From Patescibacteria group bacterium (GTDB lineage: Bacteria > Patescibacteriota > Patescibacteriia > Patescibacteriales > JBAZCA01): a stretch of 64,000 bases of DNA. The notes beneath the pieces were generated by a model. It was not told the origin of the DNA. It saw only the letters and a program-made list of their open reading frames with translations, and did not search any database. The position numbers and the translations under genes were made by a program. Within the stretch, counting starts at the first letter, position 1; each line of letters starts with the position of its first letter. Shown piece by piece: positions 7,582 to 51,569 of this stretch. The stretch lies in assembly GCA_041671125.1 (NCBI GenBank), contig JBAZCA010000003.1:128689-192688 (forward strand), written 5' to 3'.

Positions 7582-7654
7582 TGCGCCCACCAGGGGTCGA
7601 ACCTGGAACCTTGGACTTAAGAGGTCCCTGCTCTGCCAGTTGAGCTATGGGCGC
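7582..7654 (-). tRNA. tRNA-Lys (anticodon CUU)
   Basis: Hand-folded cloverleaf: acceptor GCGCCCA/TGGGCGC, anticodon loop cuCUUaa, T-loop GGTTCGA. Confidence 0.85.
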
Positions 7655-7907
7655 CCTACTTCATTAAAATTTCGTAGGGCGAGCTTATAAATGAATTAGT
7701 ATTCCTAAAAATGCTCGTCCGCCGAAGCTTTAGCGAAGGCGGAAGCTATTGGCGCTTTGAAGCGATTCCGCGGCTGTTTCGGTTTTACGCTTTTTTCGCG
7801 CCAGCGGCATCTATCATTTATAGCATAGCAGGTGGCTTTTTTCAACCACTCTCCGCGAAAACCGTTATTTAAACTTTAAAACATTTTTTATCGCCCGAGA
7901 GTTCCCG

Positions 7908-39125: not shown

Positions 39126-40731
39126 TGAGAAAATTAAATAACACGGAGAGGTGGCCGAGTGGCTGAAGGCACGACTCTCGAAAAGTCGCAGGGCGGCAAC
39201 GTCCTCCAGGGTTCAAATCCCTGCCTCTCCGCCAATTTTTACTTTTTGTGAAATCGTAAGAAACAGCCTCGGCGCAAAGCGCCTCGGCATGGTATTTTTC
39301 CGCAATTTTAAAGGCATTTTTGAAATCCAAAACCAAAGTGCGGTCGGCAATGTGGAAGTTCGAACCAATCTTTTTGAGAAAATCCCGAATCCTTTCGGGA
39401 TTTTCTTGTTGAGCGTATTTTTCGGCTTGGTTGGCGTCTTTTAGAAAGGCAATGGCAAGTTCGAACCGATTATTGCTCTTTCGCCCAAAAGCAGAGATTT
39501 TTTCTTCCAAATCTTTTTTAGCGAGAATGAGCTTGTACTTTTTGGCGGTATATTCTGTTTGCGACAAATTGCCGTCCAGTTGCAAGTCAAGTAAACGATC
39601 AAGTTTTGTTTCTATCTCTACAAGCTCATTTCTCGCTTTTTGGGCGAAAGAGCTTTCCGTTTGGGCAATTTTAATTTTTTCGTTTTCGAAAAAATTGATT
39701 GAAGCGTTTGCCCAAGCGGAAGACAAAGAAACTTTTTTGATTTCCTCTTTTATTTGAGCAGTGATGGCGTCCTCTCTGGCATACCTTTGCGAACAAGGAT
39801 TTTTCCGTTTGGTGCATCGCAAATAGTTGTGACCTTTTTGCGTTTCGGTGGTAATGAAACAACCGCACTCTCCGCAACGGAAAAATCCTCTAAAAATGTA
39901 CGGTTTGAGTTTTGGCGATTTCGGTTTGCTCTTGTTCGCCATCACTTCTTGAACGGAATCAAAAAGTTTCTTTGTGATAATCGGTTCATGCTTTCCGTCA
40001 TACAATTCACCGTTATATTCAATCATTCCATAATAGATTTTATTTTTGAGCATATACTGATAATTTGAGACGGAAAGCATTTTGCCTTTCTTGCCAACCA
40101 AGCCAATGGAATTGATAATCTTTCGGATTTGAGCGAGGGGGTATTCGCCAGTTGAGTACATTTCAAAAGCCCGCTTGATGTATTTTGCCTTTTCTTTGTC
40201 CACGGCGATACAGCGGGCGTTTTTGTCGTTCACATAGCCAAGTGGCGCCCAAGCAGGCCATATTCCATTGCGCAATTTCTGGCGAATACCCCTCTTTATA
40301 TTTTCCGAAAGATTATCCACATAGTATTTTGATTGCCCAAAAGCGATGGACAACATAAATTTTCCTTGCGGCGTCGGATCAAACCAAAAAGTAGGAAATT
40401 TTAGCGTGGTAATTTTTCCAGTATCTACGAGATAGATTATCCGTCCGCCGTCTATGGAATTACGAGCTAATCTATCGGGGTGCCACGCTAAAATTCCCTC
40501 AGCTTCATTTTTCTCTATGCTCGCCACCATATCGTTAAAAATCTCTCTGCCCGGCTCTTTGGCGGTTTTGCTTTCCACAAATTCACGGACGATATTCAGG
40601 TTTTCTTTTTTGGCATATTCTCGCAATTCAAACATTTGTGCCTCGATACTCAAAACCTGCCTTTCGGGTTCGTCCGTGGATTTGCGGGCATAGAGAAAAA
40701 TCTTTTTGGTTTGTAAATTTATGTTGTCCAT
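39001..40731 (-). CDS. Large serine recombinase (integrase). The conserved part ends near 39235; the ORF then reads antisense through tRNA-Ser.
   Basis: Catalytic-Ser motif IFLYARKSTDEPERQ, recombinase domain, zinc ribbon CGECG...LRCTKRKNPC, C-terminal coiled coil. The last 76 codons are the antisense of the tRNA and the rluB-like gene's 3' end. Confidence 0.85.
   Translation of the reverse strand: MDNINLQTKKIFLYARKSTDEPERQVLSIEAQMFELREYAKKENLNIVREFVESKTAKEPGREIFNDMVASIEKNEAEGILAWHPDRLARNSIDGGRIIYLVDTGKITTLKFPTFWFDPTPQGKFMLSIAFGQSKYYVDNLSENIKRGIRQKLRNGIWPAWAPLGYVNDKNARCIAVDKEKAKYIKRAFEMYSTGEYPLAQIRKIINSIGLVGKKGKMLSVSNYQYMLKNKIYYGMIEYNGELYDGKHEPIITKKLFDSVQEVMANKSKPKSPKLKPYIFRGFFRCGECGCFITTETQKGHNYLRCTKRKNPCSQRYAREDAITAQIKEEIKKVSLSSAWANASINFFENEKIKIAQTESSFAQKARNELVEIETKLDRLLDLQLDGNLSQTEYTAKKYKLILAKKDLEEKISAFGRKSNNRFELAIAFLKDANQAEKYAQQENPERIRDFLKKIGSNFHIADRTLVLDFKNAFKIAEKYHAEALCAEAVSYDFTKSKNWRRGRDLNPGGRCRPATFRESCLQPLGHLSVLFNFLITSVFLFRPQSVFSIPPLLNSRVPACRFLPGQDLLLPARAS
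39145..39234 (+). tRNA. tRNA-Ser (anticodon CGA), CCA encoded
   Basis: Hand-folded: acceptor GGAGAGG/CCTCTCC, anticodon loop cuCGAaa, long variable arm, T-arm CAGGGTTCAAATCCCTG. Confidence 0.9.
39216..39234. repeat. attL core (19-bp direct repeat, tRNA-Ser 3' end)
   Basis: AATCCCTGCCTCTCCGCCA, identical to 45158-45176. Confidence 0.85.
39266..39362. repeat. Inverted-repeat copy A (3' end of the recombinase gene)
   Basis: 95/97 identical to the reverse complement of 40846-40942. Confidence 0.9.
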
Positions 40732-40845
40732 ATTGTTTTTAAATTAGTTTTTGGGCAATCAAAGAAAAATACGCTCAACCTTTCGCCAAAGGCGAAAGAA
40801 AAAAGATTGGTTTGCAAAATTTCATTTTGCCAGAGCTTCGCTCTG

Positions 40846-40942
40846 CGAACTTCCGCATTGCCGACCGCACTTTGGTTTTGGATTTCAAAAATGCCTTCAA
40901 AATTGCGGAAAAATACCATGCCGAGGCGCTTTGCGCCGAGGC
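40846..40942. repeat. Inverted-repeat copy B (orphan duplicate of the recombinase 3' end, plus strand)
   Basis: Encodes ...ADRTLVLDFKNAFKIAEKYHAEALCAEA, as does the recombinase C-terminus. Confidence 0.9.
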
Positions 40943-40975
40943 TTCCAACCCTGATTTTTCGAAATGTGATTCTTG

Positions 40976-41281
40976 GCGGTGTTTTTTGAACGAAGTTCGA
41001 ACATTTTTTGAGCAAAACCCCCAATAAGGAAGCCAGCCCCGCCGTCGCTCGGAAACCTCGCCACCCCGCAAAAAAGTTTTCTTCACATTTTATATTTTGC
41101 GCGCGCCGATTTTTTTCTTCTAAAAGGAAAAGAAAACTTTTGTGCGGGGTTCTGCTCTTAACGAGCAGGACGGCGGGGCTGTCCGCTTTTTGTATTCGCT
41201 CGGGCGTGGCGGAATTCCCCCCAAACCCCCCTTCCGCCACGCCCTCGCTTCCGACGGCAATTTTTTTGGCGGAATTTTCTT
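40976..41281. repeat. 306-bp perfect inverted repeat, left copy
   Basis: Exact reverse complement of 44776-45081, checked base by base at both borders and via identical mirrored ORF translations. Confidence 0.9.
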
Positions 41282-41392
41282 TCTTTTCCTTGTCCCACCC
41301 TCCCAACGCGGAAAAGACAAAGGAACTCCCTTTTTTCTTTACTATTTCCAAATATTTTGGTAATATTATATTGTGGTTGCGAAGTTTGAACA

Positions 41393-41405
41393 TATAATCA
41401 TTATA
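41393..41405. promoter_or_regulatory. Palindrome TATAATcATTATA over the putative -10 upstream of the controller gene (candidate C-box/operator)
   Basis: Perfect 13-bp palindrome flanked by a 7-bp inverted repeat ATTGTGG/CCACAAT, 27 nt before the XRE gene start. Confidence 0.35.
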
Positions 41406-41431
41406 CCACAATTTAATATTACTAATAAAAT

Positions 41432-41626
41432 ATGGTAGAGTCAAGCAAAATCAAACGAATAAGGGAAAAGCTAGGTTTGTCGCAAGAGAAACTGGCTCGT
41501 CTTGCCGATGTTTCAAATAATACGATAATAAACATAGAGGCAGGCAAACAAGATAATCCGACCATTGATACACTTAAAAAAATCGCAAAAGCGTTAAATG
41601 TGCCGATTGAGGATTTAATAAAATAA
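41432..41626 (+). CDS. XRE-family HTH protein (likely R-M controller C-protein)
   Basis: LGLSQEKLARLADVSNNTIINIEAG HTH. 64 aa. Directly precedes the REase gene. Confidence 0.8.
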   Translation: MVESSKIKRIREKLGLSQEKLARLADVSNNTIINIEAGKQDNPTIDTLKKIAKALNVPIEDLIK

Positions 41627-41630
41627 AACT

Positions 41631-42479
41631 ATGGAAACAAATTTACTTATCGCTATCACAAATTTAGTTAAAAACCCAATTACAAATTTGGTTTCTCATT
41701 ATCGTGCCGCCAATCGGGCTAACCATATGGGCGACGCTTTAGAATTTTATATTAAGGATTTATTTTGCAATTCCCTAAATGAAAACAACCTTGAAAAGAA
41801 AAATGAAATTTACAGTAAGTATTTTTCCTACATTGGAAACCAAAATAATCCGCCAGATATTATTATCAAGCAAGGCGACGCAATAGAGGTAAAAAAGATT
41901 GAAAGTTTGCGCTCGGGAATTGCTCTTAATAGTTCATATCCAAAAGATAAGTTGTATTCTGATAGCCCGATGATAACAACGGCTTGCAGAAATTGTGAAG
42001 ATTGGCGAGAAAAAGATTTGGTGTATGTTGTTGGTGTTTCAAAAGATGACAAACTAAAAGCACTTTGGCTGGTTTATGGTAATTGCTATTCAGCAAGTAA
42101 AGAAGTTTACGAGAGAGTAAGAGATAAAATTTCAAAAGGTGTTAACGAATTGCAAGATGTTGAATTTTCAGAAACCAATGAGCTTGGTAGGGTCAACAGA
42201 GTTGATCCACTAGGAATAACTTATTTGCGTATTCGTGGAATGTGGGGCATTGAAAATCCCATCAAGGTTTTTGATTATGTCGTCCCGACAGAGCAAAATC
42301 CCGAATTTTTTGTTAATGCAATTTTGCTGAAAGAAAAATATTTGTCCTTTCCAGAAAAAGACAGAAAAAATCTTGAGAGTTTGGTTGGTTCTAACTTTTC
42401 AATAAAAGATATAAAAATAAAATCGCCAAACAACCCAGCAAAATTGCTGGAGGCAAAATTATTGAGTTTTAGAAAATAA
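41631..42479 (+). CDS. Type II restriction endonuclease (PD-(D/E)xK)
   Basis: NNPPDIIIKQGDAIEVKK gives a PD...EVK catalytic motif. 1-nt gap to the MTase gene. Confidence 0.7.
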   Translation: METNLLIAITNLVKNPITNLVSHYRAANRANHMGDALEFYIKDLFCNSLNENNLEKKNEIYSKYFSYIGNQNNPPDIIIKQGDAIEVKKIESLRSGIALNSSYPKDKLYSDSPMITTACRNCEDWREKDLVYVVGVSKDDKLKALWLVYGNCYSASKEVYERVRDKISKGVNELQDVEFSETNELGRVNRVDPLGITYLRIRGMWGIENPIKVFDYVVPTEQNPEFFVNAILLKEKYLSFPEKDRKNLESLVGSNFSIKDIKIKSPNNPAKLLEAKLLSFRK

Positions 42480-42480
42480 T

Positions 42481-43458
42481 ATGAAATTAGCTTCTTTATT
42501 TACAGGTGCGGGCGGACTAGATTTAGGCTTTGAAAGAGCTGGTTTTCATATTGTTTGGGCAAATGAATATGACCCAACAATTTGGGAAACATTTGAGCAT
42601 AATTTTCCCAAAACAAAACTAGACAAAAGAAGTATTGTAGATGTTCCAGCGTCTGAAATTCCAGATGTTGACGGAATAATCGGCGGGCCACCTTGTCAGA
42701 GTTGGAGTGAGGCAGGTGCTGGTCGTGGAATAAATGATAAGCGAGGTCAATTATTTTATGATTATATCCGTTTGCTAAAAGAAAAACAGCCAAAATTTTT
42801 TCTTGCAGAAAATGTATCGGGTATTTTACATCCAAAACATAAAGAGGCATTTTCAAATATAATCAAGGAATTTGAAAATGCGGGATATGAAATTTCATGT
42901 AAATTGCTAAATGCGAATGATTACGATGTTCCAGAGGATAGACTTCGAGTTATTATCGTTGGCTACCACAAAAGATTAAAAAAGAAATTTGAGTTTCCAG
43001 AACCACAAAAATATAAACCTGTATTGAAAGACGCTATTTATGATTTGCGTTTAGCAAAACCAGCTTTAGATAAAAATAAGACAAACGGCGATGAGCTAAA
43101 GATTCCAAACCATGAATATATGAATGGCGGTTTTTCTTCAATCTATATGTCAAGAAATCGAGTGCGTTCGTGGGATGAACCCTCTTTCACAATTCAAGCT
43201 GGAGGTCGCCACGCACCTATTCACCCTCAAGCACCAAAAATGAAATTCATAAGCCAAAACGAAAGAATTTTTGTTCCCGGAAAAGAAAATTTGTATCGCC
43301 GTTTGTCCGTAAGAGAATGTGCAAGAATTCAGACATTTCCTGACGATTTTATTTTCAAATATCGTGATATTGCTGACGGATATAAAATGATTGGTAATGC
43401 CGTTGCTGTAAATTTTGCTTTTCACTTGGCAAAAAAAATAATGGACGATCTAAAATAA
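42481..43458 (+). CDS. DNA (cytosine-5)-methyltransferase, HaeIII-like
   Basis: Motif I LFTGAGGLDLG, motif IV GGPPCQSWS, ENV, QTFPDDF, GNAV. From memory, the target-recognition region (ALDKNKTNG...PNHEY...MSRNRVR.W.EP.FT.QA.GR...HPQAP) closely resembles M.HaeIII. Confidence 0.9.
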   Translation: MKLASLFTGAGGLDLGFERAGFHIVWANEYDPTIWETFEHNFPKTKLDKRSIVDVPASEIPDVDGIIGGPPCQSWSEAGAGRGINDKRGQLFYDYIRLLKEKQPKFFLAENVSGILHPKHKEAFSNIIKEFENAGYEISCKLLNANDYDVPEDRLRVIIVGYHKRLKKKFEFPEPQKYKPVLKDAIYDLRLAKPALDKNKTNGDELKIPNHEYMNGGFSSIYMSRNRVRSWDEPSFTIQAGGRHAPIHPQAPKMKFISQNERIFVPGKENLYRRLSVRECARIQTFPDDFIFKYRDIADGYKMIGNAVAVNFAFHLAKKIMDDLK

Positions 43459-43461
43459 TTT

Positions 43462-43992
43462 ATGGAGAATTTTTTTAATCAAATCACAAATTTCTATAAT
43501 CACCCATTATTTATTATAGTTGGCGGAATAACTGTAACCATAGCGTTTATTGCATTTGTTTACAGATTGGCTTGTTGGACTTTTGGAATTACTCCGATTG
43601 TTTTTCGCTTGGGAATTGCCCTTTGGCAAAGAAAGGTGGCTATTTTTGGAAGTGTTGAAATATTTGAAAGCTTGAAAAATTCTCTTATTGATTCAAATAT
43701 TTTCAAAAGTAAAAACATCATACATATAAGTTTAGATAATATCGACAAGGCAAAGAATGAAACTATTTTTTTGGTCGATTGGGAAACATTTGGAGACAAA
43801 ATAGAGCAGATTTTTTCTGCAAGAAAAAATCATCAAACGGCAATAGTGATTTATGCTAAACCAGCAAGTATTCCTCAAGAAAAAATGAGCGATATCGCGA
43901 ATCGTGCAAATACCGTTGTCGTAAATTTTCGAGGTCGTCTTTTGAATGATATTTTGACCTCACTAATCACGACAAGCTATGACCGAAATTAA
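43462..43992 (+). CDS. Membrane-anchored protein with cytoplasmic Rossmann-like (alternating beta/alpha) domain; candidate effector/sensor
   Basis: TM helix PLFIIVGGITVTIAFIAFVY plus a second amphipathic hydrophobic segment, then strand-like KVAIFGS / IIHISL / IFLVDW / AIVIYA / VVVNF. Overlaps the next gene. Confidence 0.6.
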   Translation: MENFFNQITNFYNHPLFIIVGGITVTIAFIAFVYRLACWTFGITPIVFRLGIALWQRKVAIFGSVEIFESLKNSLIDSNIFKSKNIIHISLDNIDKAKNETIFLVDWETFGDKIEQIFSARKNHQTAIVIYAKPASIPQEKMSDIANRANTVVVNFRGRLLNDILTSLITTSYDRN

Positions 43993-44764
43993 TATGTATT
44001 TGAATCAGATATTACAAAAATATAATGGGAGAGATATTTCAGGCTATTCCAATGCACTTTCTCAACTTCAAACGTCCTTGAAAACATGGGCATCGTCTTG
44101 TTATGCAAATCTTTTGTATTCTGGCTCTCGAGCAAAAGGCACGGCGATATCTCTTGCGTCTGATGTAGATTATTTAGTTTCTTTGACAAGTAGCTGTAAC
44201 GAAAATAGCGGTGGTCTAAAAAGTATTTACGATTCTTTGTATACAACATTGAAAAGTAAGTATCCATCAGCTAGTAAACAAAATGTTTCCGTAAGAATAA
44301 ACTTGAATGGATTAGAAGTAGATATAACCCCAGCAAGAAAACAAACGGGAAATACGAACGACCATTGGTTATATGTCTCGAAACTTGACACAAGAAAGCA
44401 AACAAATATTCAGAAGCATATCAATGATATATCTCAATCGGGCAGAATAAACGAGATAAAATTGTTGAAGATTTGGAGAGAGTTAAACCACCTTGATTTT
44501 TCATCAATATATTTGGAATACCTGCTTGTCAATAATATTTTGCTGAATAAATCAAAAGATGAAAATAGCCTTGGGGATAATGTTTGGCACGCTCTTAATG
44601 AATTAGCAAAAACTCAAGGCAATCCATTGTTTGCAAGAATTGTCGACCCAGCCAACTCTGCAAATATTCTTTCCGATCTTTTGACAAGTACCGAAAAGAA
44701 TAAGATAATAAGCCAAGCACAAACAGCAATTCGTCAAACAGATTGGAATCAAATTGTTTGGTAG
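43979..44764 (+). CDS. Minimal Pol-beta-fold nucleotidyltransferase, cGAS/DncV (SMODS/CD-NTase)-like
   Basis: GSRAKGTAISLASDVDYLVSL (GS...DxD), third acidic residue in GLEVDITPA, then TNIQKHI...IKLLKIWR helical-domain pattern. An alternative ATG at 43994 is 1 nt after the upstream stop. Confidence 0.65.
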   Translation: MTEINMYLNQILQKYNGRDISGYSNALSQLQTSLKTWASSCYANLLYSGSRAKGTAISLASDVDYLVSLTSSCNENSGGLKSIYDSLYTTLKSKYPSASKQNVSVRINLNGLEVDITPARKQTGNTNDHWLYVSKLDTRKQTNIQKHINDISQSGRINEIKLLKIWRELNHLDFSSIYLEYLLVNNILLNKSKDENSLGDNVWHALNELAKTQGNPLFARIVDPANSANILSDLLTSTEKNKIISQAQTAIRQTDWNQIVW

Positions 44765-44775
44765 TTTGGATTTAT

Positions 44776-45081
44776 AAGAAAATTCCGCCAAAAAAATTGC
44801 CGTCGGAAGCGAGGGCGTGGCGGAAGGGGGGTTTGGGGGGAATTCCGCCACGCCCGAGCGAATACAAAAAGCGGACAGCCCCGCCGTCCTGCTCGTTAAG
44901 AGCAGAACCCCGCACAAAAGTTTTCTTTTCCTTTTAGAAGAAAAAAATCGGCGCGCGCAAAATATAAAATGTGAAGAAAACTTTTTTGCGGGGTGGCGAG
45001 GTTTCCGAGCGACGGCGGGGCTGGCTTCCTTATTGGGGGTTTTGCTCAAAAAATGTTCGAACTTCGTTCAAAAAACACCGC
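44776..45081. repeat. 306-bp perfect inverted repeat, right copy
   Basis: Exact reverse complement of 40976-41281. An imperfect extension of about 9 bp lies outward. Confidence 0.9.
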
Positions 45082-45157
45082 AGAGAATCAGCGGTAAATT
45101 TCAAAAGAAAGTTTGGGTTCGGGAGGCATACGCCTCCCGCCCGGCGCAGGCCGGGCG

Positions 45158-45176
45158 AATCCCTGCCTCTCCGCCA
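45158..45176. repeat. attR core (19-bp direct repeat)
   Basis: AATCCCTGCCTCTCCGCCA, not embedded in a foldable tRNA. Confidence 0.85.
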
Positions 45177-45191
45177 GATAAAATTTAATTT

Positions 45192-45881
45192 ATGTATTTG
45201 GAAAAATTCAGCGAATTTTTAAAGACAGTTGATTTGCAGGGTTTTAGAAAAAAGTATAGCCGGGTAAAAATTGTTGAAATGGATTTAAGTAAAGACATTC
45301 AGGCTATTGAATTATTGTATCGGGTGTATTGGGATGAAAAAAAGTTTTTATCCTTTGATGATTTTTACGACCGCTATTTTAGCGAGAAAAGACAAGCGGC
45401 GGAGAATTTTCGTATCAGATCAACTATGTGTAAAGATTGTTTCCGCCGCGGCTTGAAAGCAAGGATTTATAGAACCTGGGCAGGACTAATAACACAGATT
45501 CACGCCGGGTACGTGGCCGAATTTGTTTTTGGCGAAGGAACGGTTTCTATGTCTGCCGAACTTGACCATCAGGGAGCGGATATAAGAGTAAAATATAGGG
45601 GTCACTTTTTAAATTATCAGGTTAAAAAAACCAGCTATAGCGGCGTAAAAAGCGGACGGCCGTTGCCACGGAAGGCTAAACTTGAAGGTGAGTCAATTGA
45701 TATTAAATATGAGGTCCCTAGTTGTCTTCAAAACCCAAAAACAAAAAAAGGCGAGCTCAGAGAACCTTATTTAAGGTTCTGTAAAGACGAGAGAATAAAG
45801 TCTTTTGATAACGGCTTCGTGGTTTTCACTACGAAAATTTTTAAAGATAAAAAAAGAGAAATTGATTCAAGGTCAAAATAG
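45192..45881 (+). CDS. Putative type II restriction endonuclease (TaqI-like family, tentative)
   Basis: LKARIYRTWAGLITQIHAGY...ELDHQGADIRV...NYQVKK gives a D...(Q)xK nuclease-like core. From memory it resembles R.TaqI. Convergent with the MTase gene and overlaps it by 9 nt. Confidence 0.5.
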   Translation: MYLEKFSEFLKTVDLQGFRKKYSRVKIVEMDLSKDIQAIELLYRVYWDEKKFLSFDDFYDRYFSEKRQAAENFRIRSTMCKDCFRRGLKARIYRTWAGLITQIHAGYVAEFVFGEGTVSMSAELDHQGADIRVKYRGHFLNYQVKKTSYSGVKSGRPLPRKAKLEGESIDIKYEVPSCLQNPKTKKGELREPYLRFCKDERIKSFDNGFVVFTTKIFKDKKREIDSRSK

Positions 45882-47399
45882 CTTAAGAGCCGTTTTTACC
45901 GACGCAATCGCCTTTTCGGCGATTTTTTTGTACTCAGGGTTAATTTCAAAGCCGATATAATTTTGATTTAGTTCTTTGGCGGCCGCGCATTCAGCTCCGC
46001 TTCCCGCGAAGGGAACAAGTATAACGCCATTTCCTTTCGGCATGGCCGATCTGATAAGCCGGCGGCAAATCTCTAAAGGTTTCTGAGTCGGATGCTTTAT
46101 TATATCGTGGCCGATATGTTTTTTTAATTCTCTTGGCGCGAAAACTCCGCCCCCGCAAGTTTTACAGATAAACCACCTCTCGTTCATGCCCGCTCCCCCG
46201 GCCAAGGCCGGAATCTTTATAACATCTCTCGGTAAGGCGCCTCCTTCGTGAGCATTATATACGGTTTCTTTTCCATTCTTACTGTAACGACCAACCGTTC
46301 CTTTGCGTATTTTTCCGGCCGCTCCATTTAAAAAACCTTCGGTGTAAGGCTCCCGCACTTCGTCCCGGTTATAGATCGGATTGTTTTTCCAGGCGCAGAT
46401 TATGGCTTCATGGCTTCTTTGCCAAAAATTTAGAGAAGCAACGTTTTTGTTTGTATAGTGCCAAATAAGCCATCTTTTATTTATTGGTATCTCAACCGAA
46501 AGATGAGCAAGAATTTCACTAAAACCATAAATAAACATTGTGCCAGTTGGTTTTAAGACCCTAATAGATTCATCTATCCAACTTTTTGACCAACGAATAT
46601 ATTCATTCATTTCTCGTTTATCAATGTTGTTGCCAAAATCTTTACCGATATTATATGGCGGATCAATTATAATAACATCGCAACATTCATCTGGTAATTT
46701 CCTTAATTCTTCAACTGCATCATTTAAAATAATTTGATTGAGAGGTAATCTATTATTACGTTTAATATTTTTTGACGTAATCAGCTCTTTTGCAAAATTA
46801 TTTTCATCGTTTTTTATAACATCAATTACAATACCTTGTATTGTTAACGGGGTTTGTTTGGAAATAATTATGGGATCCATTGTTCTGTTGGCTGGCTGAA
46901 GTCTAATATGCCCCTTTTCTTTGTAAAACTTTTTTAATGTAGTTTGATAGTTATCAATTAAAGCAACAATTTTTTGCCCATTTTCGGCGGTATCCTGCTG
47001 TTTGACTATCACTACATCGCCGTCATTAATATTCTCTTCAATCATACTATTGCCAACAACTCTCAATGCATAGAAATTGCCAGAGCTTGGTAATTTACTC
47101 TGTGGAACGGCAATAACATTCCTTTCTTTAATAGCTTCAATGGGTTGTCCGGCCGCGATATTCCCCATGAGCGGAATATTTATCATTTTTTCGCTCTCAA
47201 AAACAGAAATCGCTCTTGGTTGATTATCTTCTTTTCTTAAAAAGCCTTTTTCCTGGAGTTTTTTTATATGAAAGTGAGCGGTAGAAACAGAAGCTATTTT
47301 TAGATGCTTCTTAATTTCTTCAAGGGAGGGGGCGTATTTATGCTTAAAGCAATATTGTTTTACAAAATCCAATACATTTTTTTGTTTTTTAGTAAGCAT
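45873..47399 (-). CDS. LexA-like repressor (wHTH + S24 peptidase) fused to a beta-class N4/N6 DNA methyltransferase
   Basis: Residues 1-200: LexA wHTH, cleavage-site IAAGQP, Ser motif VGNSM, Lys in TTLKKF. Residues about 225-508: IIIDPPYN (motif IV) precedes VPFAGSGAE (motif I), with PTQKP and a CxxC insert. Confidence 0.8.
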   Translation of the reverse strand: MLTKKQKNVLDFVKQYCFKHKYAPSLEEIKKHLKIASVSTAHFHIKKLQEKGFLRKEDNQPRAISVFESEKMINIPLMGNIAAGQPIEAIKERNVIAVPQSKLPSSGNFYALRVVGNSMIEENINDGDVVIVKQQDTAENGQKIVALIDNYQTTLKKFYKEKGHIRLQPANRTMDPIIISKQTPLTIQGIVIDVIKNDENNFAKELITSKNIKRNNRLPLNQIILNDAVEELRKLPDECCDVIIIDPPYNIGKDFGNNIDKREMNEYIRWSKSWIDESIRVLKPTGTMFIYGFSEILAHLSVEIPINKRWLIWHYTNKNVASLNFWQRSHEAIICAWKNNPIYNRDEVREPYTEGFLNGAAGKIRKGTVGRYSKNGKETVYNAHEGGALPRDVIKIPALAGGAGMNERWFICKTCGGGVFAPRELKKHIGHDIIKHPTQKPLEICRRLIRSAMPKGNGVILVPFAGSGAECAAAKELNQNYIGFEINPEYKKIAEKAIASVKTALKLF

Positions 47400-47403
47400 A
47401 TTA

Positions 47404-47465
47404 TTGACAGACGATTTTTATTAGGTATATAATACTATTATAGAAAATAAATAGAAAACTTACAA
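47404..47465. promoter_or_regulatory. Divergent overlapping promoters sharing a 15-bp palindrome TATAATAcTATTATA (candidate LexA-MTase operator)
   Basis: Plus strand: TTGACA (47404), 18 nt, TATAAT (47428). Minus strand: TTGTAA (47465-47460), 17 nt, TATAAT (47442-47437). Palindrome at 47428-47442. Confidence 0.5.
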
Positions 47466-47626
47466 TAGCCCGTAATTCACGTATACTTTTATCAATATCC
47501 TTAAATTTGAGCGACTTTTACCGACCTTCGCTAAAACTTCGGCGGGTCACAGTCGGTTCAAACTTCCGGACATCGCCACCGCCAAGACATTTTTTTATCG
47601 CGCAGACCCGAGTGACCCTAAATAAT

Positions 47627-48187
47627 ATGAACTTTCAAGATTTAAAATTCAAGATTGGATTCTGGCACCCGTTTGGCCCTCATGCAGGAGAGAGCGCTGA
47701 AGATATTATTAAAAGGAAGCAAAGTGAAATCAAGAAAAACGGCTGGACCCTTTGGTCTTTTCAATTTAGGAAAAGCCTTGAACTTTGGTCTAAAGAGGTC
47801 AAAAAAGTAAATCCAAGTAATGTTTTGGTTTTTTGTTCGAAAGGTGATGGAACTAAAGATCCTAAAAGTGAGCCAAAACGCTGTAATTACTATATACCCA
47901 TAGGCGAGGTTGAACCTAAAAAAATTCCTTCCGGAGTAGAGATTCCTCATCCTATGGGAAAAAAGATGAAGGGATCTGCCTTCATTGTAAAAAGAATTAT
48001 TTACCCGCTTCCCTTTGACTACGGGGCAATACCAATCGAATGGTTAAAGGACGGCGAGTGGCAAACAGCGATGTTGCCGACTCGACCCGAATACTTAATA
48101 AAAATTGGACAAGGTCCGCCTATGAGAAAATTTCGCGCTGTGCTTGAACTTCAAGTGCCATATCTTGCCGAGGTTGGTATACGGTAA
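47627..48187 (+). CDS. Hypothetical protein (186 aa) divergent from the LexA-MTase gene
   Basis: ATG at 47627 preferred, because the upstream TTG-initiated part crosses a tRNA-like remnant. No motif recognised. Confidence 0.5.
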   Translation: MNFQDLKFKIGFWHPFGPHAGESAEDIIKRKQSEIKKNGWTLWSFQFRKSLELWSKEVKKVNPSNVLVFCSKGDGTKDPKSEPKRCNYYIPIGEVEPKKIPSGVEIPHPMGKKMKGSAFIVKRIIYPLPFDYGAIPIEWLKDGEWQTAMLPTRPEYLIKIGQGPPMRKFRAVLELQVPYLAEVGIR

Positions 48188-48356
48188 ATCCCTACCGACT
48201 CACGTGCCTCGGTCAGGGAAGTTTCTAAAAATTATTAAGACACCTTGATTTTTGGTTACTTAACCCGAGTGTCCTGCCATGTTGGCAACATTAACCTGAA
48301 TCAATTCGCAAAAATTTTTGATCTCAATAAAAATGAGTCGGACAAAAATCCCGCTC

Positions 48357-48560
48357 TTACTTTTTGTATTCCAATATATCTCCAGGCTGACAATCCAGAG
48401 CCTTGCAGATTGCTTCCAGCGTTGAAAGGCGAATTGCTTTTGCCTTGCCGTTTTTCAAGACGGAAATATTGGCCATTGTGATGCCGACTTTTTCAGAGAG
48501 CTCGGTAACGCTCATCTTTCGCTTCGCCAACATAACGTCTATGTTAATAATGATCGCCAT
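48357..48560 (-). CDS. XRE-family HTH regulator (YozG-like)
   Basis: MSVTELSEKVGITMANISVLKNGK HTH. 67 aa. Downstream of its usual membrane-protein partner. Confidence 0.8.
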   Translation of the reverse strand: MAIIINIDVMLAKRKMSVTELSEKVGITMANISVLKNGKAKAIRLSTLEAICKALDCQPGDILEYKK

Positions 48561-48564
48561 AGTA

Positions 48565-49044
48565 TTAAACGGTTAAGTCGTTCTCGGACTTTATATCTAC
48601 AGCGCTTTGTAAAGTTTTTTCAAACACCGCCGCGGCCGTGGCGATTATGATAGAAATAAAAGTAGTCACAATGCATATAGCAAGAAAACCCGCCGGATCG
48701 TCATCTTTGGCGTGAAATATCCTTATGTATAGTCCTGCCATTACAATCGCAGCGCCCTCTATGATTGCAGAGTATTTTATAGTCCTTAAAGCTTTCACTG
48801 AGCTTAGTGAAAATACTTTATTTTGCCCGATGTACCTGAGTAATTTAAACGCCTGATAGAGCGCCGTAAAAAATGGGATAGACGCTACGTAGATATAGGC
48901 TATGAACGGATCGGAGTAAATACTAAACAGGTCTAGGTTCGCGGCTCTCCCCTCGGTCAAGGGAAACCGAATCATGCCCGCCAGCGTCGCGATGCCGATG
49001 AGCACAATCACTACCTGAAGAAAAATTGTTGAGCTTCTTTTCAT
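48565..49044 (-). CDS. DUF2975-like four-TM membrane protein
   Basis: Topology and pairing with a YozG-like HTH. Confidence 0.55.
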   Translation of the reverse strand: MKRSSTIFLQVVIVLIGIATLAGMIRFPLTEGRAANLDLFSIYSDPFIAYIYVASIPFFTALYQAFKLLRYIGQNKVFSLSSVKALRTIKYSAIIEGAAIVMAGLYIRIFHAKDDDPAGFLAICIVTTFISIIIATAAAVFEKTLQSAVDIKSENDLTV

Positions 49045-49352
49045 GGATGATTTTTAGTTATAGTAATAATTACAGCTTAATCTATCGATTATCGTTTGTC
49101 AATATATTTTTATTGTTGTTTAAAATGGTGGATTTAAGGCAAAAAGGGCTTATTAAATAAGATGCCGGTTTTTTAAATCCTTACCAATATTAAAAAAACG
49201 GATACAATAAAACCATGAATAAAAATTAAAAACATCTAAATTATATAGACACGGTTAACCTCGGCTCTATATACCATACAGTCCGCTTTAACAGAGCAGT
49301 TTTTTGTGGTATTATTTAATCAGTAAAGGAATAATAAAATTAACTAATCAAT

Positions 49353-49685
49353 ATGAGAATTATTAAATGGATCTCCAGGATATTAGCGCTATGCATCTTA
49401 ATTTTTGCCTTGCCATTTTATTTCGGTTACGGTAATCCGTTGCCGTTTGCCAATCCTGATTACTCATTATGGGAAAACGTCGCGCTGGCGATGATGCCGT
49501 TGGTTTTTATTGGTTTAGCTTTGGGCTGGAAATATCCTAAAATTGGAGGCTGGCTTATAATCAGCTCAATTGCAATCGGTTTTGTCGTCGGACTTTTAAC
49601 GGAAGCAAGCCTCAGTATCAACCTAGCGGTTCCTGTTATTCCTGGAATTTTGTATCTGATAGACGGATATAAAAAATATGAATAA
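49353..49685 (+). CDS. Small integral membrane protein
   Basis: Four hydrophobic helices. Confidence 0.5.
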   Translation: MRIIKWISRILALCILIFALPFYFGYGNPLPFANPDYSLWENVALAMMPLVFIGLALGWKYPKIGGWLIISSIAIGFVVGLLTEASLSINLAVPVIPGILYLIDGYKKYE

Positions 49686-49842
49686 AAATATTAAAATAAT
49701 ACTTTTTATTCTTGCGATATTGCTCGGAGTATTTTTGATCGTGTTTGGCGGATATGATGACAGTCCTGGAGCGCAAGGACTCGGCCTTATACTGATTATT
49801 GCTGGCGTGGTTGTTATGATCAGGGGTAAGAAAAAAAAATAA
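49678..49842 (+). CDS. 54-aa two-TM micro-protein (not in the supplied ORF track)
   Basis: ATGAATAA overlap with the upstream stop. MNKNIKIILFILAILLGVFLIVFGG...LILIIAGVVVMIRGKKKK. Confidence 0.4.
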   Translation: MNKNIKIILFILAILLGVFLIVFGGYDDSPGAQGLGLILIIAGVVVMIRGKKKK

Positions 49843-50104
49843 TAGTCCATGTTATTTTAATCGCAATAACTACTACGAAGAACAAATCAATGTTTGCGAC
49901 AGCGAAAGATAAACTTTTAATATTGACTCTGCCGTTGACAGGATTGTTCAGACGATTAAATAAAACACCCTCAAATAAAAACAGAGACTTTTATAGTCGC
50001 TGTTTTTTAAATTTGACAAGGTCTAGTTATGGGTATATACTCATAATGGCAGTAGGTAAAGGTCGAATTGCCAATCATTTATTAAGACAATAATAAATAA
50101 ACAT

Positions 50105-50344
50105 ATGCCAAAAATGGATGGAACAGGCCCGATGGGGCAAGGGGTCGGAACCGGCCGGGGAATGGGTCCTTGCGGCGCTGGTAATAGAATGGGGCGAGGA
50201 TGCCTCGGAGGATATGGACAAGGTCGCAGGAGATTTATTTCCCCTAAAAATGAGCTGTTTGCCCTAGAAAACGAAGAAAAGATGCTTCTGGAAGATTTAG
50301 AAGTTATCAGAGCCGAGAAAGAAGCCCTAAGAGGCCAAAAATAA
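50105..50344 (+). CDS. DUF5320-like Gly/Arg-rich protein with C-terminal coiled coil
   Basis: MPKMDGTGPMGQG..GRGMGPCG...GRG then a leucine-zipper-like tail. Adjacent to a DUF134-like gene. Confidence 0.6.
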   Translation: MPKMDGTGPMGQGVGTGRGMGPCGAGNRMGRGCLGGYGQGRRRFISPKNELFALENEEKMLLEDLEVIRAEKEALRGQK

Positions 50345-50440
50345 AAGAAGGCGCGGGAACCGGCCTCTTTAAAAAAAGGGGCCGGGTGGTCTTCTTCTAT
50401 AACAAAATATTATCAAATTTACTTTAATTTTTCAATATTT

Positions 50441-50731
50441 ATGCCAAGACCGAGACATTGTTTATGTAAGGCGATAAAATTTAAACCAAACATAATATAT
50501 TTTAAACCGCAAGGGGTTCCGATGAGAGATTTGCAGATCGTAGAACTTTCACTTGAGGAGATTGAAGCTTATCGCCTTCGCCATATAGAAGATATGGATC
50601 AACAGGCGGCGGCTGAAAAAATGGATACTTCAACCAGTACTTACCAAAGGATACTTTACTTCGCTTATAAAAAAATTGCTGACGCCTTAATCAACGGTAA
50701 AGCGATCAGAATTATTAAACATGATAAATAG
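50441..50731 (+). CDS. DUF134/UPF0251-like sigma-70-region-4-type HTH protein
   Basis: FKP.G.P......V.L..EE.EA.RL...E...Q..AA..M..S..T..R.L pattern. Confidence 0.65.
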   Translation: MPRPRHCLCKAIKFKPNIIYFKPQGVPMRDLQIVELSLEEIEAYRLRHIEDMDQQAAAEKMDTSTSTYQRILYFAYKKIADALINGKAIRIIKHDK

Positions 50732-50864
50732 GGTTGATTTCTCCGGCCGGAGAAATCAAAAAATAAATTAAAGCTAAGCTGGATGTTCCGACTAAAATCA
50801 GACCGGCCGTCAACCCGCTTGATAAAACCGTTCTTAAAATTTAAGAGGTCAGGCCAATAAAAAT

Positions 50865-51569
50865 ATGAGAGATGTTGTTAAAGAGATAAAAAAAGAATTG
50901 AAGAAAAACGCGGACGCGAAAACAAGAGAAAGCGGCCGGAGGTTTTTTAAGGAGGAGGTAAAATTATACGGGGTCAGGGCGGCGGCGGTTTCAAAAATCG
51001 CGAGAGAATATTTTAGCGAAGTGAAGAGAATGGATAAGAAAAAAATGTTCGCGGTTTGCGAAGAGCTTTTTAAGTCGGGATACTCGGAAGAAGCCTGGAT
51101 CGCGGCCGGCTGGGTTCATAAATATGCTAATTACGAAAAATCAGACTTTCCGGTTTACGAGCGCTGGTTAGATAAATATATAGATAACTGGGCGAAATGC
51201 GACACCTTTTGCAACCACGCAGTCGGCGAGTTCGTTGAAAAATATCCGGCTTATCTTTCAAAACTGAAAATTTGGGCCCGGTCAAAAAATCTTTGGAAAA
51301 GAAGGGCGGCGGCGGTTTCTTTAATTATACCGGCGAAAAAAGGGAAATTTTTAAAAGAAATTTTTGGGATCGCCGACATTTTACTGCTGGACGAAGAAGA
51401 CATGGTGCAAAAAGGCTACGGCTGGATGCTTAAGGAGGCGAGCCGCAAGAATGAAAAACAGGTTTTTAGCTATGTTATGGAAAAGAAAAAAATCATGCCC
51501 CGGACGGCGCTCCGCTACGCAATTGAAAAAATGCCGGAAAATTTAAAAAAGCAGGCGATGGAGAAATAA
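50865..51569 (+). CDS. DNA alkylation repair (AlkC/AlkD-like HEAT-repeat) protein
   Basis: N-terminal ADAKTRESGRRFFKEEVKLYGVRAAAV pattern and about 230 aa of helical repeats. Confidence 0.7.
   Translation: MRDVVKEIKKELKKNADAKTRESGRRFFKEEVKLYGVRAAAVSKIAREYFSEVKRMDKKKMFAVCEELFKSGYSEEAWIAAGWVHKYANYEKSDFPVYERWLDKYIDNWAKCDTFCNHAVGEFVEKYPAYLSKLKIWARSKNLWKRRAAAVSLIIPAKKGKFLKEIFGIADILLLDEEDMVQKGYGWMLKEASRKNEKQVFSYVMEKKKIMPRTALRYAIEKMPENLKKQAMEK

Follow-up and report, generated by a model that had tools for sequence, protein, structure and literature searches.

A small element with defence cargo at a tRNA-Ser gene of a Patescibacteria group bacterium, probably inserted by a large serine recombinase

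In a 64,000-nucleotide stretch of contig JBAZCA010000003.1 from a Patescibacteria group bacterium (a metagenome-assembled genome, GenBank assembly: GCA_041671125.1; the whole stretch is hereinafter the window), we identified a block of 5.9 kb (39235-45176) that is in all likelihood an integrated member of a family of small elements, in which a large serine recombinase (LSR) inserts at the 3′ ends of tRNA-Ser genes. An earlier note on this DNA had proposed an integrative element at tRNA-Ser(CGA) moved by such an enzyme, and this proposal is supported by an empty site in a related contig, by the tRNA genes at which the related loci lie, and by near-identical recombinases that carry differing cargo. 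The 19-mer AATCCCTGCCTCTCCGCCA, by which the note had delimited the element, was recovered by repeat search at the tRNA-Ser gene's 3′ end (39216-39234) and again at 45158-45176. Even with up to two mismatches allowed, these are its only copies in the window, where none would be expected by chance, so that it is no dispersed repeat on this scale. Neither ARAGORN nor Rfam found a tRNA at the second copy, and the 78 nt preceding that copy align with the tRNA no better than shuffled sequence does; an Rfam scan of the region returned the tRNA only, with matches to MIR6445 and sX4 far under threshold. Pfam and PADLOC likewise agree with the gene content that the note had read between the two copies, namely a serine recombinase, a controller, a restriction endonuclease, a C5 cytosine methyltransferase and a transmembrane protein/nucleotidyltransferase pair. 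The cargo is, as the note had said, richer in AT (GC 0.30-0.37 vs 0.39-0.49 for the flanks and the recombinase), and the serine enzyme is the sole recombinase of the insert: Pfam detected neither a second recombinase among its open reading frames (ORFs) nor a Phage_integrase (tyrosine recombinase) domain in any of them.

The junction predicted for an unoccupied site, 39234 joined to 45177, is present in a JGI metagenome contig (L087), which we found in a JGI scan with the tRNA variable arm. In this contig, an orthologous tRNA-Ser(CGA) gene ending in ...CTCTCCGCCA is joined directly to GATAAAATTTAATTTATG; its right flank is 97.4% identical to the window over 2.3 kb, its left flank is syntenic at 77%, and relative to it the inserted block is 39235-45176. 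We scanned one genome per GTDB species (556 relatives) and examined 80 loci, 69 of which have sequence past the end of the recombinase gene. An antisense tRNA-Ser lies directly at the recombinase 3′ end in 61 of these 69 (CGA 20, GCT 17, GGA 14, TGA 10), a tRNA-Gln in three that form one subclade, and two are tandem arrays; hence 64 of the 69 lie at one kind of site, tRNA-Ser or, in the one subclade, tRNA-Gln. We designated the right end (attR) J1, an internal attP-like site J2, and attL J3. Read in the sense of the recombinase, the family layout, which is also that of the window, runs from flank-NN-GCGG-P′ (J1) through a cargo of 2-7 kb, an inverted P′-GCGG-P (J2), the region upstream of the recombinase and the recombinase itself to P-TTG-GCGG-antisense tRNA (J3). 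In 38 of the 41 loci that could be assessed, the recombinase gene is preceded upstream by an inverted copy of its own 3′ end (median arm identity 99%), and this copy is kept down to 60% recombinase amino acid identity, in Elusimicrobia. The recombinase DNA of relatives is 92-95% identical to the window gene, while the tRNA-Ser(CGA) genes of their hosts are just 69-80% identical to the window tRNA; near-identical recombinases have therefore spread recently among deeply divergent hosts, and the cargo changes from locus to locus. By these sequence comparisons the element belongs to a widespread Patescibacteria family with more distant relatives in Elusimicrobia. In the literature searched, we found no description of an LSR/tRNA-Ser family in Patescibacteria.

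The recombinase is judged to be a bona fide LSR because of its invariant catalytic residues, the domain layout of its AlphaFold model and full-length Foldseek matches. Sequence profiles detected the Resolvase (PF00239, E-value 7e-20), Recombinase (PF07508, 4.5e-16) and Zn_ribbon_recom (PF13408, 2.8e-9) domains; Y14, R16, S18 and a D86-R87-L88-x-R90 motif are invariant across 33 homologues, and the zinc-ribbon cysteines C286, C289, C306 and C313 are conserved in homologues as well. The model (pLDDT 80.7) shows catalytic, recombinase and zinc-ribbon domains followed by two long helices (338-385 and 391-417), the same order as in the Listeria A118/LI, Bxb1, phiC31 and SPbeta SprA enzymes. Foldseek returned the SPbeta, Bxb1, phiC31 and LI integrases as full-length matches (E-values 1e-18 to 1e-11), at a sequence identity of only 12-18%; a sequence search of the PDB gave matches to the catalytic domain (E-value ~2e-5) and none beyond it. 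The ORF of the gene has no stop before the tRNA and stays open across the 19-mer and, in antisense, across the tRNA as far as 39001. Its native part ends at about 39229; the final 76 codons come from the tRNA in antisense and from the flank upstream, a consequence of attP being placed within the recombinase ORF. The C-termini of the thousands of homologues retrieved in a protein search fall into two classes that split right after a conserved ...NWR: one continues as RGRDSNPR..., the antisense translation of a tRNA 3′ end, and the other has a native end, ...NWRCFLxEVRTFFEQNPQ then stop (CFL[DN]EVRTFFEQNP then stop). With its native end, the window's recombinase would have about 516 aa.

Two long inverted repeats organize the element: I2 (98 nt, 98%; 39265-39362 and 40846-40943) brackets the recombinase gene, and I1 (315 nt, 99%; 40967-41281 and 44776-45090) brackets the cargo. 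J2 comprises a P2 arm (40846-40975, variant c), a GCGG core (40976-40979) and a P′b arm (40980-41281), and encodes an orphan copy of the native recombinase C-terminus (...SNPDFSKCDSWRCFLNEVRTFFEQNPQ then stop). The 27-mer GCGGTGTTTTTTGAACGAAGTTCGAAC has exact matches only at 40976-41002 (+) and 45055-45081 (-). When 20 J1, 39 J2 and 42 J3 sites were compared across the family, GCGG (tRNA nucleotides 74-71) was the sole sequence common to the three junctions, and the overlap of attP and attB is 4-6 bp across the subfamilies. The 20 J1 loci share the consensus flank-NN-GCGG-P′, in which the dinucleotide beside GCGG is specific to the host (TG in 8 of 20 loci; otherwise AT, TT, AG, CA, GT or CT). 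It follows from these host-specific bases that the crossover falls within GCGG and that the element supplies the CA of CCA. The crossover dinucleotide is most probably GG (CC at 39229-39230, tRNA nucleotides 71-72), since it is the only non-palindromic dinucleotide in GCGG and the polarity of the junctions is constant.

From these junctions we propose the following route of integration. The attB site would consist of the tRNA 3′ acceptor strand and T-arm (antisense strand GCGG-AGAGG...GGATTCGAACC), which in tRNA-Ser(CGA) would furnish the B′ half of attB, the gene now forming attL. The attP site would lie within the recombinase's own ORF, with the last codons up to ...NW as P arm, GCGG as core, and a P′ arm that encodes the final 15 residues (CFLNEVRTFFEQNPQ then stop) before extending downstream. 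Strand exchange inside GCGG would regenerate the tRNA, with the CA of its CCA coming from the element, and would sever the recombinase ORF from its native end, leaving it to run on through the antisense tRNA. An LSR-precise empty site is predicted to read ...CCTCTCCGC joined to AGAGAATCAGCGG (39232 joined to 45082), the circle or native-end junction GTAAAAATTG-GCGG-TGTTTTTTGAAC (P1 arm to P′ arm), and the inverted state ...CCTCTCCGC joined to CAAGAATCACATTTCG (tRNA to the reverse complement of P2).

The position of one motif within the arms points to how the tRNA may be read. Counted from the first G of the core, the start of TT[CT]GAAC is at +21 for P′ arms (36 of 39 J2 sites and 19 of 20 J1 sites) and at +16 for tRNA arms (40 of 42 J3 sites), where it is T-arm sequence. 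With GG as centre, TTYGAAC thus spans half-site positions 18-24 in attP vs 13-19 in attB, and the same 5-bp shift occurs in the Elusimicrobia subfamily and the tRNA-Gln subclade. For the Listeria integrase, the zinc-ribbon motif has been placed at 16-24 in attP and 11-19 in attB, likewise a 5-bp inward shift (Rutherford et al., 2013; PMC3783163), and the TTYGAAC shift, as read from aligned sites, matches this known LSR attB/attP zinc-ribbon rule (PMC3783163). The zinc-ribbon domain presumably reads TTCGAAC, an assignment of domain to motif that we infer. In the tRNA-Gln subclade (L048, L050, L064; recombinase ~70-74% identity), L048 and L050 have both the inverted gene-end copy and the 5-bp TTCGAAC shift, and the recombinase of L064 runs off the contig start; this subclade amounts to a natural retargeting experiment. 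The P′ arm itself (window 40967-41290, mirrored at 44776-45090) is GC-rich and forms a long hairpin (-123 kcal/mol, z = -5.85 vs shuffles) without a match to any Rfam family. About 300 nt of it are 94-95% conserved in L001, L014, L027, L030, L034, L054 and L091, and the others keep the first ~45 nt only. A promoter and terminator scan found no usable promoter for the recombinase and placed terminator-like hairpins within the P′ arms.

J2 sits between the region upstream of the recombinase and the cargo, as a result of which inverted P arms enclose the recombinase module and inverted P′ arms the cargo; because J2 is inverted, any recombination among the element's sites would lead to inversions, not deletions. 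In L091 the recombinase module is inverted, with a sense tRNA upstream, a native C-terminus that reads into P′, and co-directional cargo; L040 and L094 probably also have an inverted recombinase module, and the cargo is flipped in L041, L044 and L092. In the tandem arrays L004 and L020 the old recombinase reads into the P′ arm of the new element, which suggests that attL can be reused as a target; this would be atypical for an LSR. Other unusual arrangements were also seen. In L025 (9669-11587) a recombinase module lies between two identical inverted tRNA-Ser(GGA) genes with no P′ arm and no cargo, and it may have arisen by recombination of the internal attP with a second tRNA copy, or be an assembly chimera. 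In the L033 array (1590-2200) the current recombinase adjoins a divergent tRNA-Ser(GCT) whose acceptor stem, GGUGAGG, is unusual; next come a tRNA-Ser(TGA) and a ~95-nt remnant of another recombinase 3′ end that is joined to a second, canonical tRNA-Ser(GCT), an array which suggests that elements are able to bring tRNA genes along. In L091 a 27-nt duplicate of the tRNA-Ser(GCT) 5′ end (7648-7674 vs 7770-7796) lies ~100 nt upstream of the intact gene. As to what J2 does, we tentatively suggest a recombinase-binding site that permits harmless inversions and/or autoregulation; its role could be that of an operator, of a switch for inversion or of a gene end kept in reserve. It seems to us rather unlikely that J2 is a self-rearranging device, whereby the recombinase would join J2 to its own attL and flip its gene between a tRNA-fused and a native C-terminus. 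Such a C-terminal switch, with no separate directionality factor, would set whether the enzyme integrates, excises or is silent, and attL would stay usable. If this were true, defence cargo could be stacked and exchanged at tRNA-Ser, and it would constitute both a new means of controlling serine-integrase directionality and a platform for exchanging cassettes in bacteria from which most known mobile-element machinery is missing.

The element boundary that the earlier note drew at the 19-mer stands in part: the direct repeat and the empty site are real, but the 19-mer is not the att core, given that attP and attB share GCGG alone. An in vitro test with att sites derived solely from the 19-mer would thus use the wrong ones. 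The canonical right junction is at 45078-45081, 76 nt inward of the second 19-mer, and the right copy lacks the TTYGAAC motif, so that it may be regarded as a crippled attB half. Between this junction and the right 19-mer is a 76-nt stretch that we call x, which has no BLAST match among the 80 loci or in the JGI metagenomes and is absent from L087. Anchored at its right end, x aligns with P arms at a score of 10 (vs 0.35 +/- 2.75 for shuffles, 5 of 2000 scoring as high); an unanchored local alignment was marginal and out of register (3 of 300 shuffles). By this resemblance x is probably the 3′ end, now decayed, of the recombinase that an earlier occupant carried, and x plus the 19-mer (95 nt) would be a relic outside the canonical site, left by an earlier occupant or by an imprecisely excised donor circle. 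P-arm-like sequence also lies outside the far junction in L014, L019, L022 and L032, and tRNA relics do so in L030 (17 nt), L010 (14 nt) and L003 (8 nt), each beside a GC-rich hairpin. Candidate routes to the 19-mer are imprecise excision from a donor, gene conversion from one inverted arm to the other (compare L053, below) with subsequent cargo inversion, and a foreign integrase. A decayed second tRNA-Ser made up of x and the 19-mer was considered and rejected, global and local alignments being no better than shuffles and Rfam and ARAGORN negative. Both inverted arms of L053 (9624-9720 and 11364-11460) end in TGGCGGAGAGGC, that is, the core plus tRNA-like bases, with no adjacent tRNA, and look as though they might derive from gene conversion from attL into the internal site.

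Several points weigh against integration by the LSR as set out above. Relative to L087, the insert takes in an extra 95 nt and has a 19-bp repeat at its flanks; because a canonical LSR event yields no such flanking repeat, insertion at this site may in its final step have departed from the standard attP x attB reaction. L087 is, moreover, a different species (its left flank being only 77% identical), and its right flank may itself be the product of exchange. For the window element we saw no circle, excision or inversion junction, and exact look-ups of the predicted inverted-state and circle-form recombinases gave no match, a result that is uninformative as the window's own protein is missing from the collection. 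No recombination directionality factor was recognised, the small ORFs of the P′ repeats having been set aside as mirror images of low complexity. Under the accepted model an LSR is not expected to recombine attP with attL, as tandem arrays or site-specific inversion would need, and the rearranged forms may instead have arisen by homologous recombination across the 134-460-nt repeats. All comparative loci are metagenome-assembled, and some arrangements (e.g., L025) are possibly chimeric. The data show how the junctions are built, which sites are targeted, that an empty site exists, that the family has spread horizontally, that the enzyme has an LSR fold and that the motif is shifted by 5 bp; any activity of the element at present is what we infer.

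An explanation that takes the 19-bp repeat as the att core would have integration occur within the 19 bp shared with the tRNA, from a circle whose attP is P arm, 19-mer, x and P′ arm, and would predict a repeat-mediated empty site of the form ...CTCCGCCA joined to GATAAAATTT (39234 joined to 45177). L087 does lack exactly 39235-45176, the recombinase ORF of the predicted circle is open in frame without a stop (...KNWRRGRDSPGLRRAGGVCLPNPNFLLKFTADSLRCFLNEVRTFFEQNPQ then stop, 547 aa), and the short tRNA relics outside J1 in L030, L010 and L003 are of a similar kind. We nevertheless consider it unlikely, since the far-end tRNA fragment is missing in 12 of 17 related elements, where the far junction meets unrelated host sequence at GCGG; every subfamily has the short attP/attB overlap of 4-6 bp only; x occurs in no other locus; and a P-core-19-mer site without TTYGAAC would be attL-like and a crippled substrate. 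The full tRNA with a displaced fragment running from T-loop to 3′ end is also the classical signature of a tyrosine-integrase island (PMC4383910). This raises the alternative that a T-loop-targeting element with a tyrosine integrase acting in trans made the 19-bp repeat, and that the LSR element is a later passenger in the decayed island. The relics of the window and L030 end within the T-loop, and the inverted relic of L044 begins in the T-loop region; on the other hand, the insert has no tyrosine integrase, the supposed island would be reduced to 76 nt that resemble the serine recombinase's own 3′ end, and the relics of L003 and L010, at 8 and 14 nt, have lengths that fit no single fixed core, all of which makes this account highly improbable.

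That both modules are bracketed by inverted repeats, that the recombinase module and the cargo are each seen in both orientations in other loci, and that no excision product was seen would also suit a recombinase that is mainly a resident invertase, a phase-variation switch for the defence genes, with insertion having come about by other means, e.g., homologous recombination after DNA uptake. This we hold to be very unlikely: the protein has the full size and fold of an LSR and is not of the small Hin/Gin type, near-identical recombinases sit with unrelated cargo at tRNA-Ser genes of deeply divergent hosts, J1 meets unrelated host flank exactly at GCGG, and the 5-bp shift of the zinc-ribbon motif is specific to attP x attB integration. 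Insertion by the LSR at the tRNA-Ser 3′ end thus remains our preferred interpretation, and the features on which it draws are collected in Table 1.

Table 1. Features of the element and its tRNA target, in window coordinates
Feature	Coordinates	Strand	Basis and remarks
Large serine recombinase ORF, integrated state, 576 aa	39001..40731	-	ORF list; Pfam PF00239, PF07508, PF13408
tRNA-Ser(CGA), intact	39145..39234	+	ARAGORN; Rfam RF00005, 54.9 bits
19-mer, left copy, tRNA T-loop to CCA	39216..39234	+	Exact repeat search
Predicted attL (J3) core, CCGC on + strand = GCGG in recombinase sense, tRNA nucleotides 71-74	39229..39232
Predicted P1 arm, last ~43 recombinase codons, P half of attP	39233..39362	-	I2-left 98 nt + 32-nt variable part (variant a)
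Region upstream of recombinase gene	40732..40845	-	BLAST 'up_rec' query: most loci, 85-99% identity
J2, complete second attP-like site, inverted relative to recombinase	40846..41281	+	Repeats I1, I2; ORF 40812-41027
Cargo: restriction-modification control (C) protein, helix-turn-helix	41432..41626	+	Pfam HTH_3 3.6e-20; PADLOC Control_protein
Cargo: NgoPII-family type II restriction endonuclease	41631..42479	+	Pfam RE_NgoPII 1.8e-118
Cargo: C5 cytosine DNA methyltransferase	42481..43458	+	Pfam DNA_methylase 4.2e-98
Cargo: CBASS-type 1TM effector	43462..43992	+	PADLOC PDLC00664 Effector 1TM 3.4e-82
Cargo: SMODS/CD-NTase-like oligonucleotide cyclase	43979..44764	+	Pfam SMODS 1.5e-8; PADLOC Cyclase PDLC00803 2.5e-84
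P′a arm + core, canonical right end (attR, J1), inverted copy of P′b	44776..45081	-	Core CCGC 45078-45081
x, 76 nt, two GC-rich hairpins + stretch resembling decayed P arm (variant c)	45082..45157
19-mer, right copy, displaced tRNA 3′ fragment (core + 15 nt of B′ arm)	45158..45176	+

The cargo of the window element thus combines a restriction-modification (R-M) system with a single-transmembrane (1TM) effector and a SMODS cyclase, which would form a pair like that of the cyclic oligonucleotide-based antiphage signalling system (CBASS), PADLOC scoring both as CBASS components. By Pfam and PADLOC the cargo consists of R-M and CBASS genes only, with no phage structural, packaging or replication genes, and IMG/VR holds a single, distant relative (58% identical); on these grounds an origin as a phage, prophage or phage satellite was dropped. 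In 19 elements the cargo is mainly R-M of types I, II, III and IIG, together with GmrSD, Mrr and AAA ATPases; related elements also carry two proteins that match histidyl-tRNA synthetase families and, in one case, RadC.

The site shows variation in other assemblies too. Three JGI contigs (Ga0172379; L088, L089, L090) have a common tRNA-Ser(CGA) and left flank and split exactly past CCA, from which it follows that the tRNA end is a polymorphic hotspot. Past that point one of the three enters a 76%-identical TaqI-like R-M, another continues into unrelated DNA and the third stops; no recombinase arm is seen. In an independent assembly of the same strain, contig ends fall within the recombinase gene and precisely where the right cargo repeat begins (44776). 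Two Logan contigs from different samples (L084 and L085) both start at window position 45135, within x, which hints at a population branch there; the end of L082 at 39190 has its explanation in a relative present alongside, which is different at D-loop position 39160. Just outside the element lies a second R-M (45192-47399), comprising a TaqI-family endonuclease (45192-45881) and, convergent with it, a LexA DNA-binding domain and S24 peptidase fused to an N4/N6 methyltransferase (45873-47399, -). Because this block is 97.4% identical to L087 and the other flank merely 77%, the module looks as if it was recently exchanged at the same tRNA hotspot, without recombinase arms. Beyond it, a 226-aa ORF (47507-48187) with no Pfam or PADLOC match lies just past 47457, where the similarity to L087 ends, and the stretch 47457-50891 is unlike L087 in length and content.

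With the LSRs of phages and integrative and conjugative elements, the present family shares short att sites, a minimal common core and a zinc-ribbon motif 5 bp nearer the centre in attB; unlike them, it targets the end of a tRNA gene where theirs is a protein-coding gene, has its attP inside an ORF, and possesses a second, inverted attP. An attachment site within the integrase gene is known from myxophage Mx8, whose attP lies within int and whose integration alters the C-terminus of the IntP integrase, a tyrosine recombinase. As in Mx8, the site here is in the 3′ end of the integrase gene, and the free and integrated C-termini differ; unlike in Mx8, the enzyme is a serine recombinase and there is a spare inverted copy of the gene end, which Mx8 does not have. 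Among small serine recombinases, which work with accessory sites or Fis enhancers, Tn3/gamma-delta has its res between tnpA and tnpR, and Hin/Gin have inverted sites around a segment with two orientations. By analogy with Tn3/gamma-delta res, the recombinase-binding site predicted here between divergent genes could autoregulate, and as in Hin/Gin, inverted sites flank a segment found in both orientations; unlike the Hin/Gin enzymes (~190 aa with a C-terminal helix-turn-helix), this is a ~516-aa LSR with complete attP sites and an integrative element. The serine transposons Tn4451 (TnpX), Tn5397 (TndX) and IS607 have low target specificity (GA or a similar dinucleotide) and many sites per genome, in contrast to the 64 of 69 loci found here at one kind of tRNA site. 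Insertion at a tRNA 3′ end with restoration of the gene recalls Islander-type islands and phage mv4 (tRNA-Ser 3′ end; bioRxiv 10.1101/2023.11.06.565760). Accessory or defence cargo is likewise shared with Islander-type islands, as is, in the window, a displaced tRNA fragment (19 nt) at the far end. However, both enzyme family and chemistry are unrelated to those of tyrosine-integrase islands, and the family as a whole lacks the displaced fragment because its crossover lies 2-5 nt from the discriminator base. Tycheposons, of which 910 of 937 use tyrosine recombinases and many carry replication genes (bioRxiv 10.1101/2020.12.28.424599), are similarly small cargo elements at tRNA genes that shuttle adaptive and defence genes and leave tandem arrays and relics; unlike them, the elements described here consist of an LSR and cargo only. 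We conclude that the element works like a phage-type serine integrase and resembles the tRNA islands of tyrosine integrases in target and cargo only; it is an LSR element that would read its tRNA target via the T-arm sequence, has its attP within an ORF, keeps a conserved second attP in reserve in inverted orientation, and carries defence genes.

The earlier note had remarked that targeting of tRNA 3′ ends is classically a trait of tyrosine integrases, and the literature agrees, serine cases being essentially unreported (PMC4383910; PMC7192596): according to one survey, use of tRNA genes was not known for serine integrases (PMC4383910), and in another 14 of 297 serine-integrase candidates lay at tRNA genes, with proof needed (PMC7192596). 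The present family breaks this rule with dozens of independent, base-precise examples, and the coincidence of the zinc-ribbon motif with a near-universal tRNA T-arm sequence offers a structural rationale for it. Its ORF-internal attP and spare inverted attP are unusual design features whose function is directly testable. As the att sites are predicted to the base and the target is present in every genome of a group that has so far been genetically intractable, the recombinase is a candidate genome-engineering tool. The Patescibacteria themselves, whose genomes are tiny and in which few mobile elements have been recognised, appear to have in this family a major route for exchanging R-M and other defence genes.

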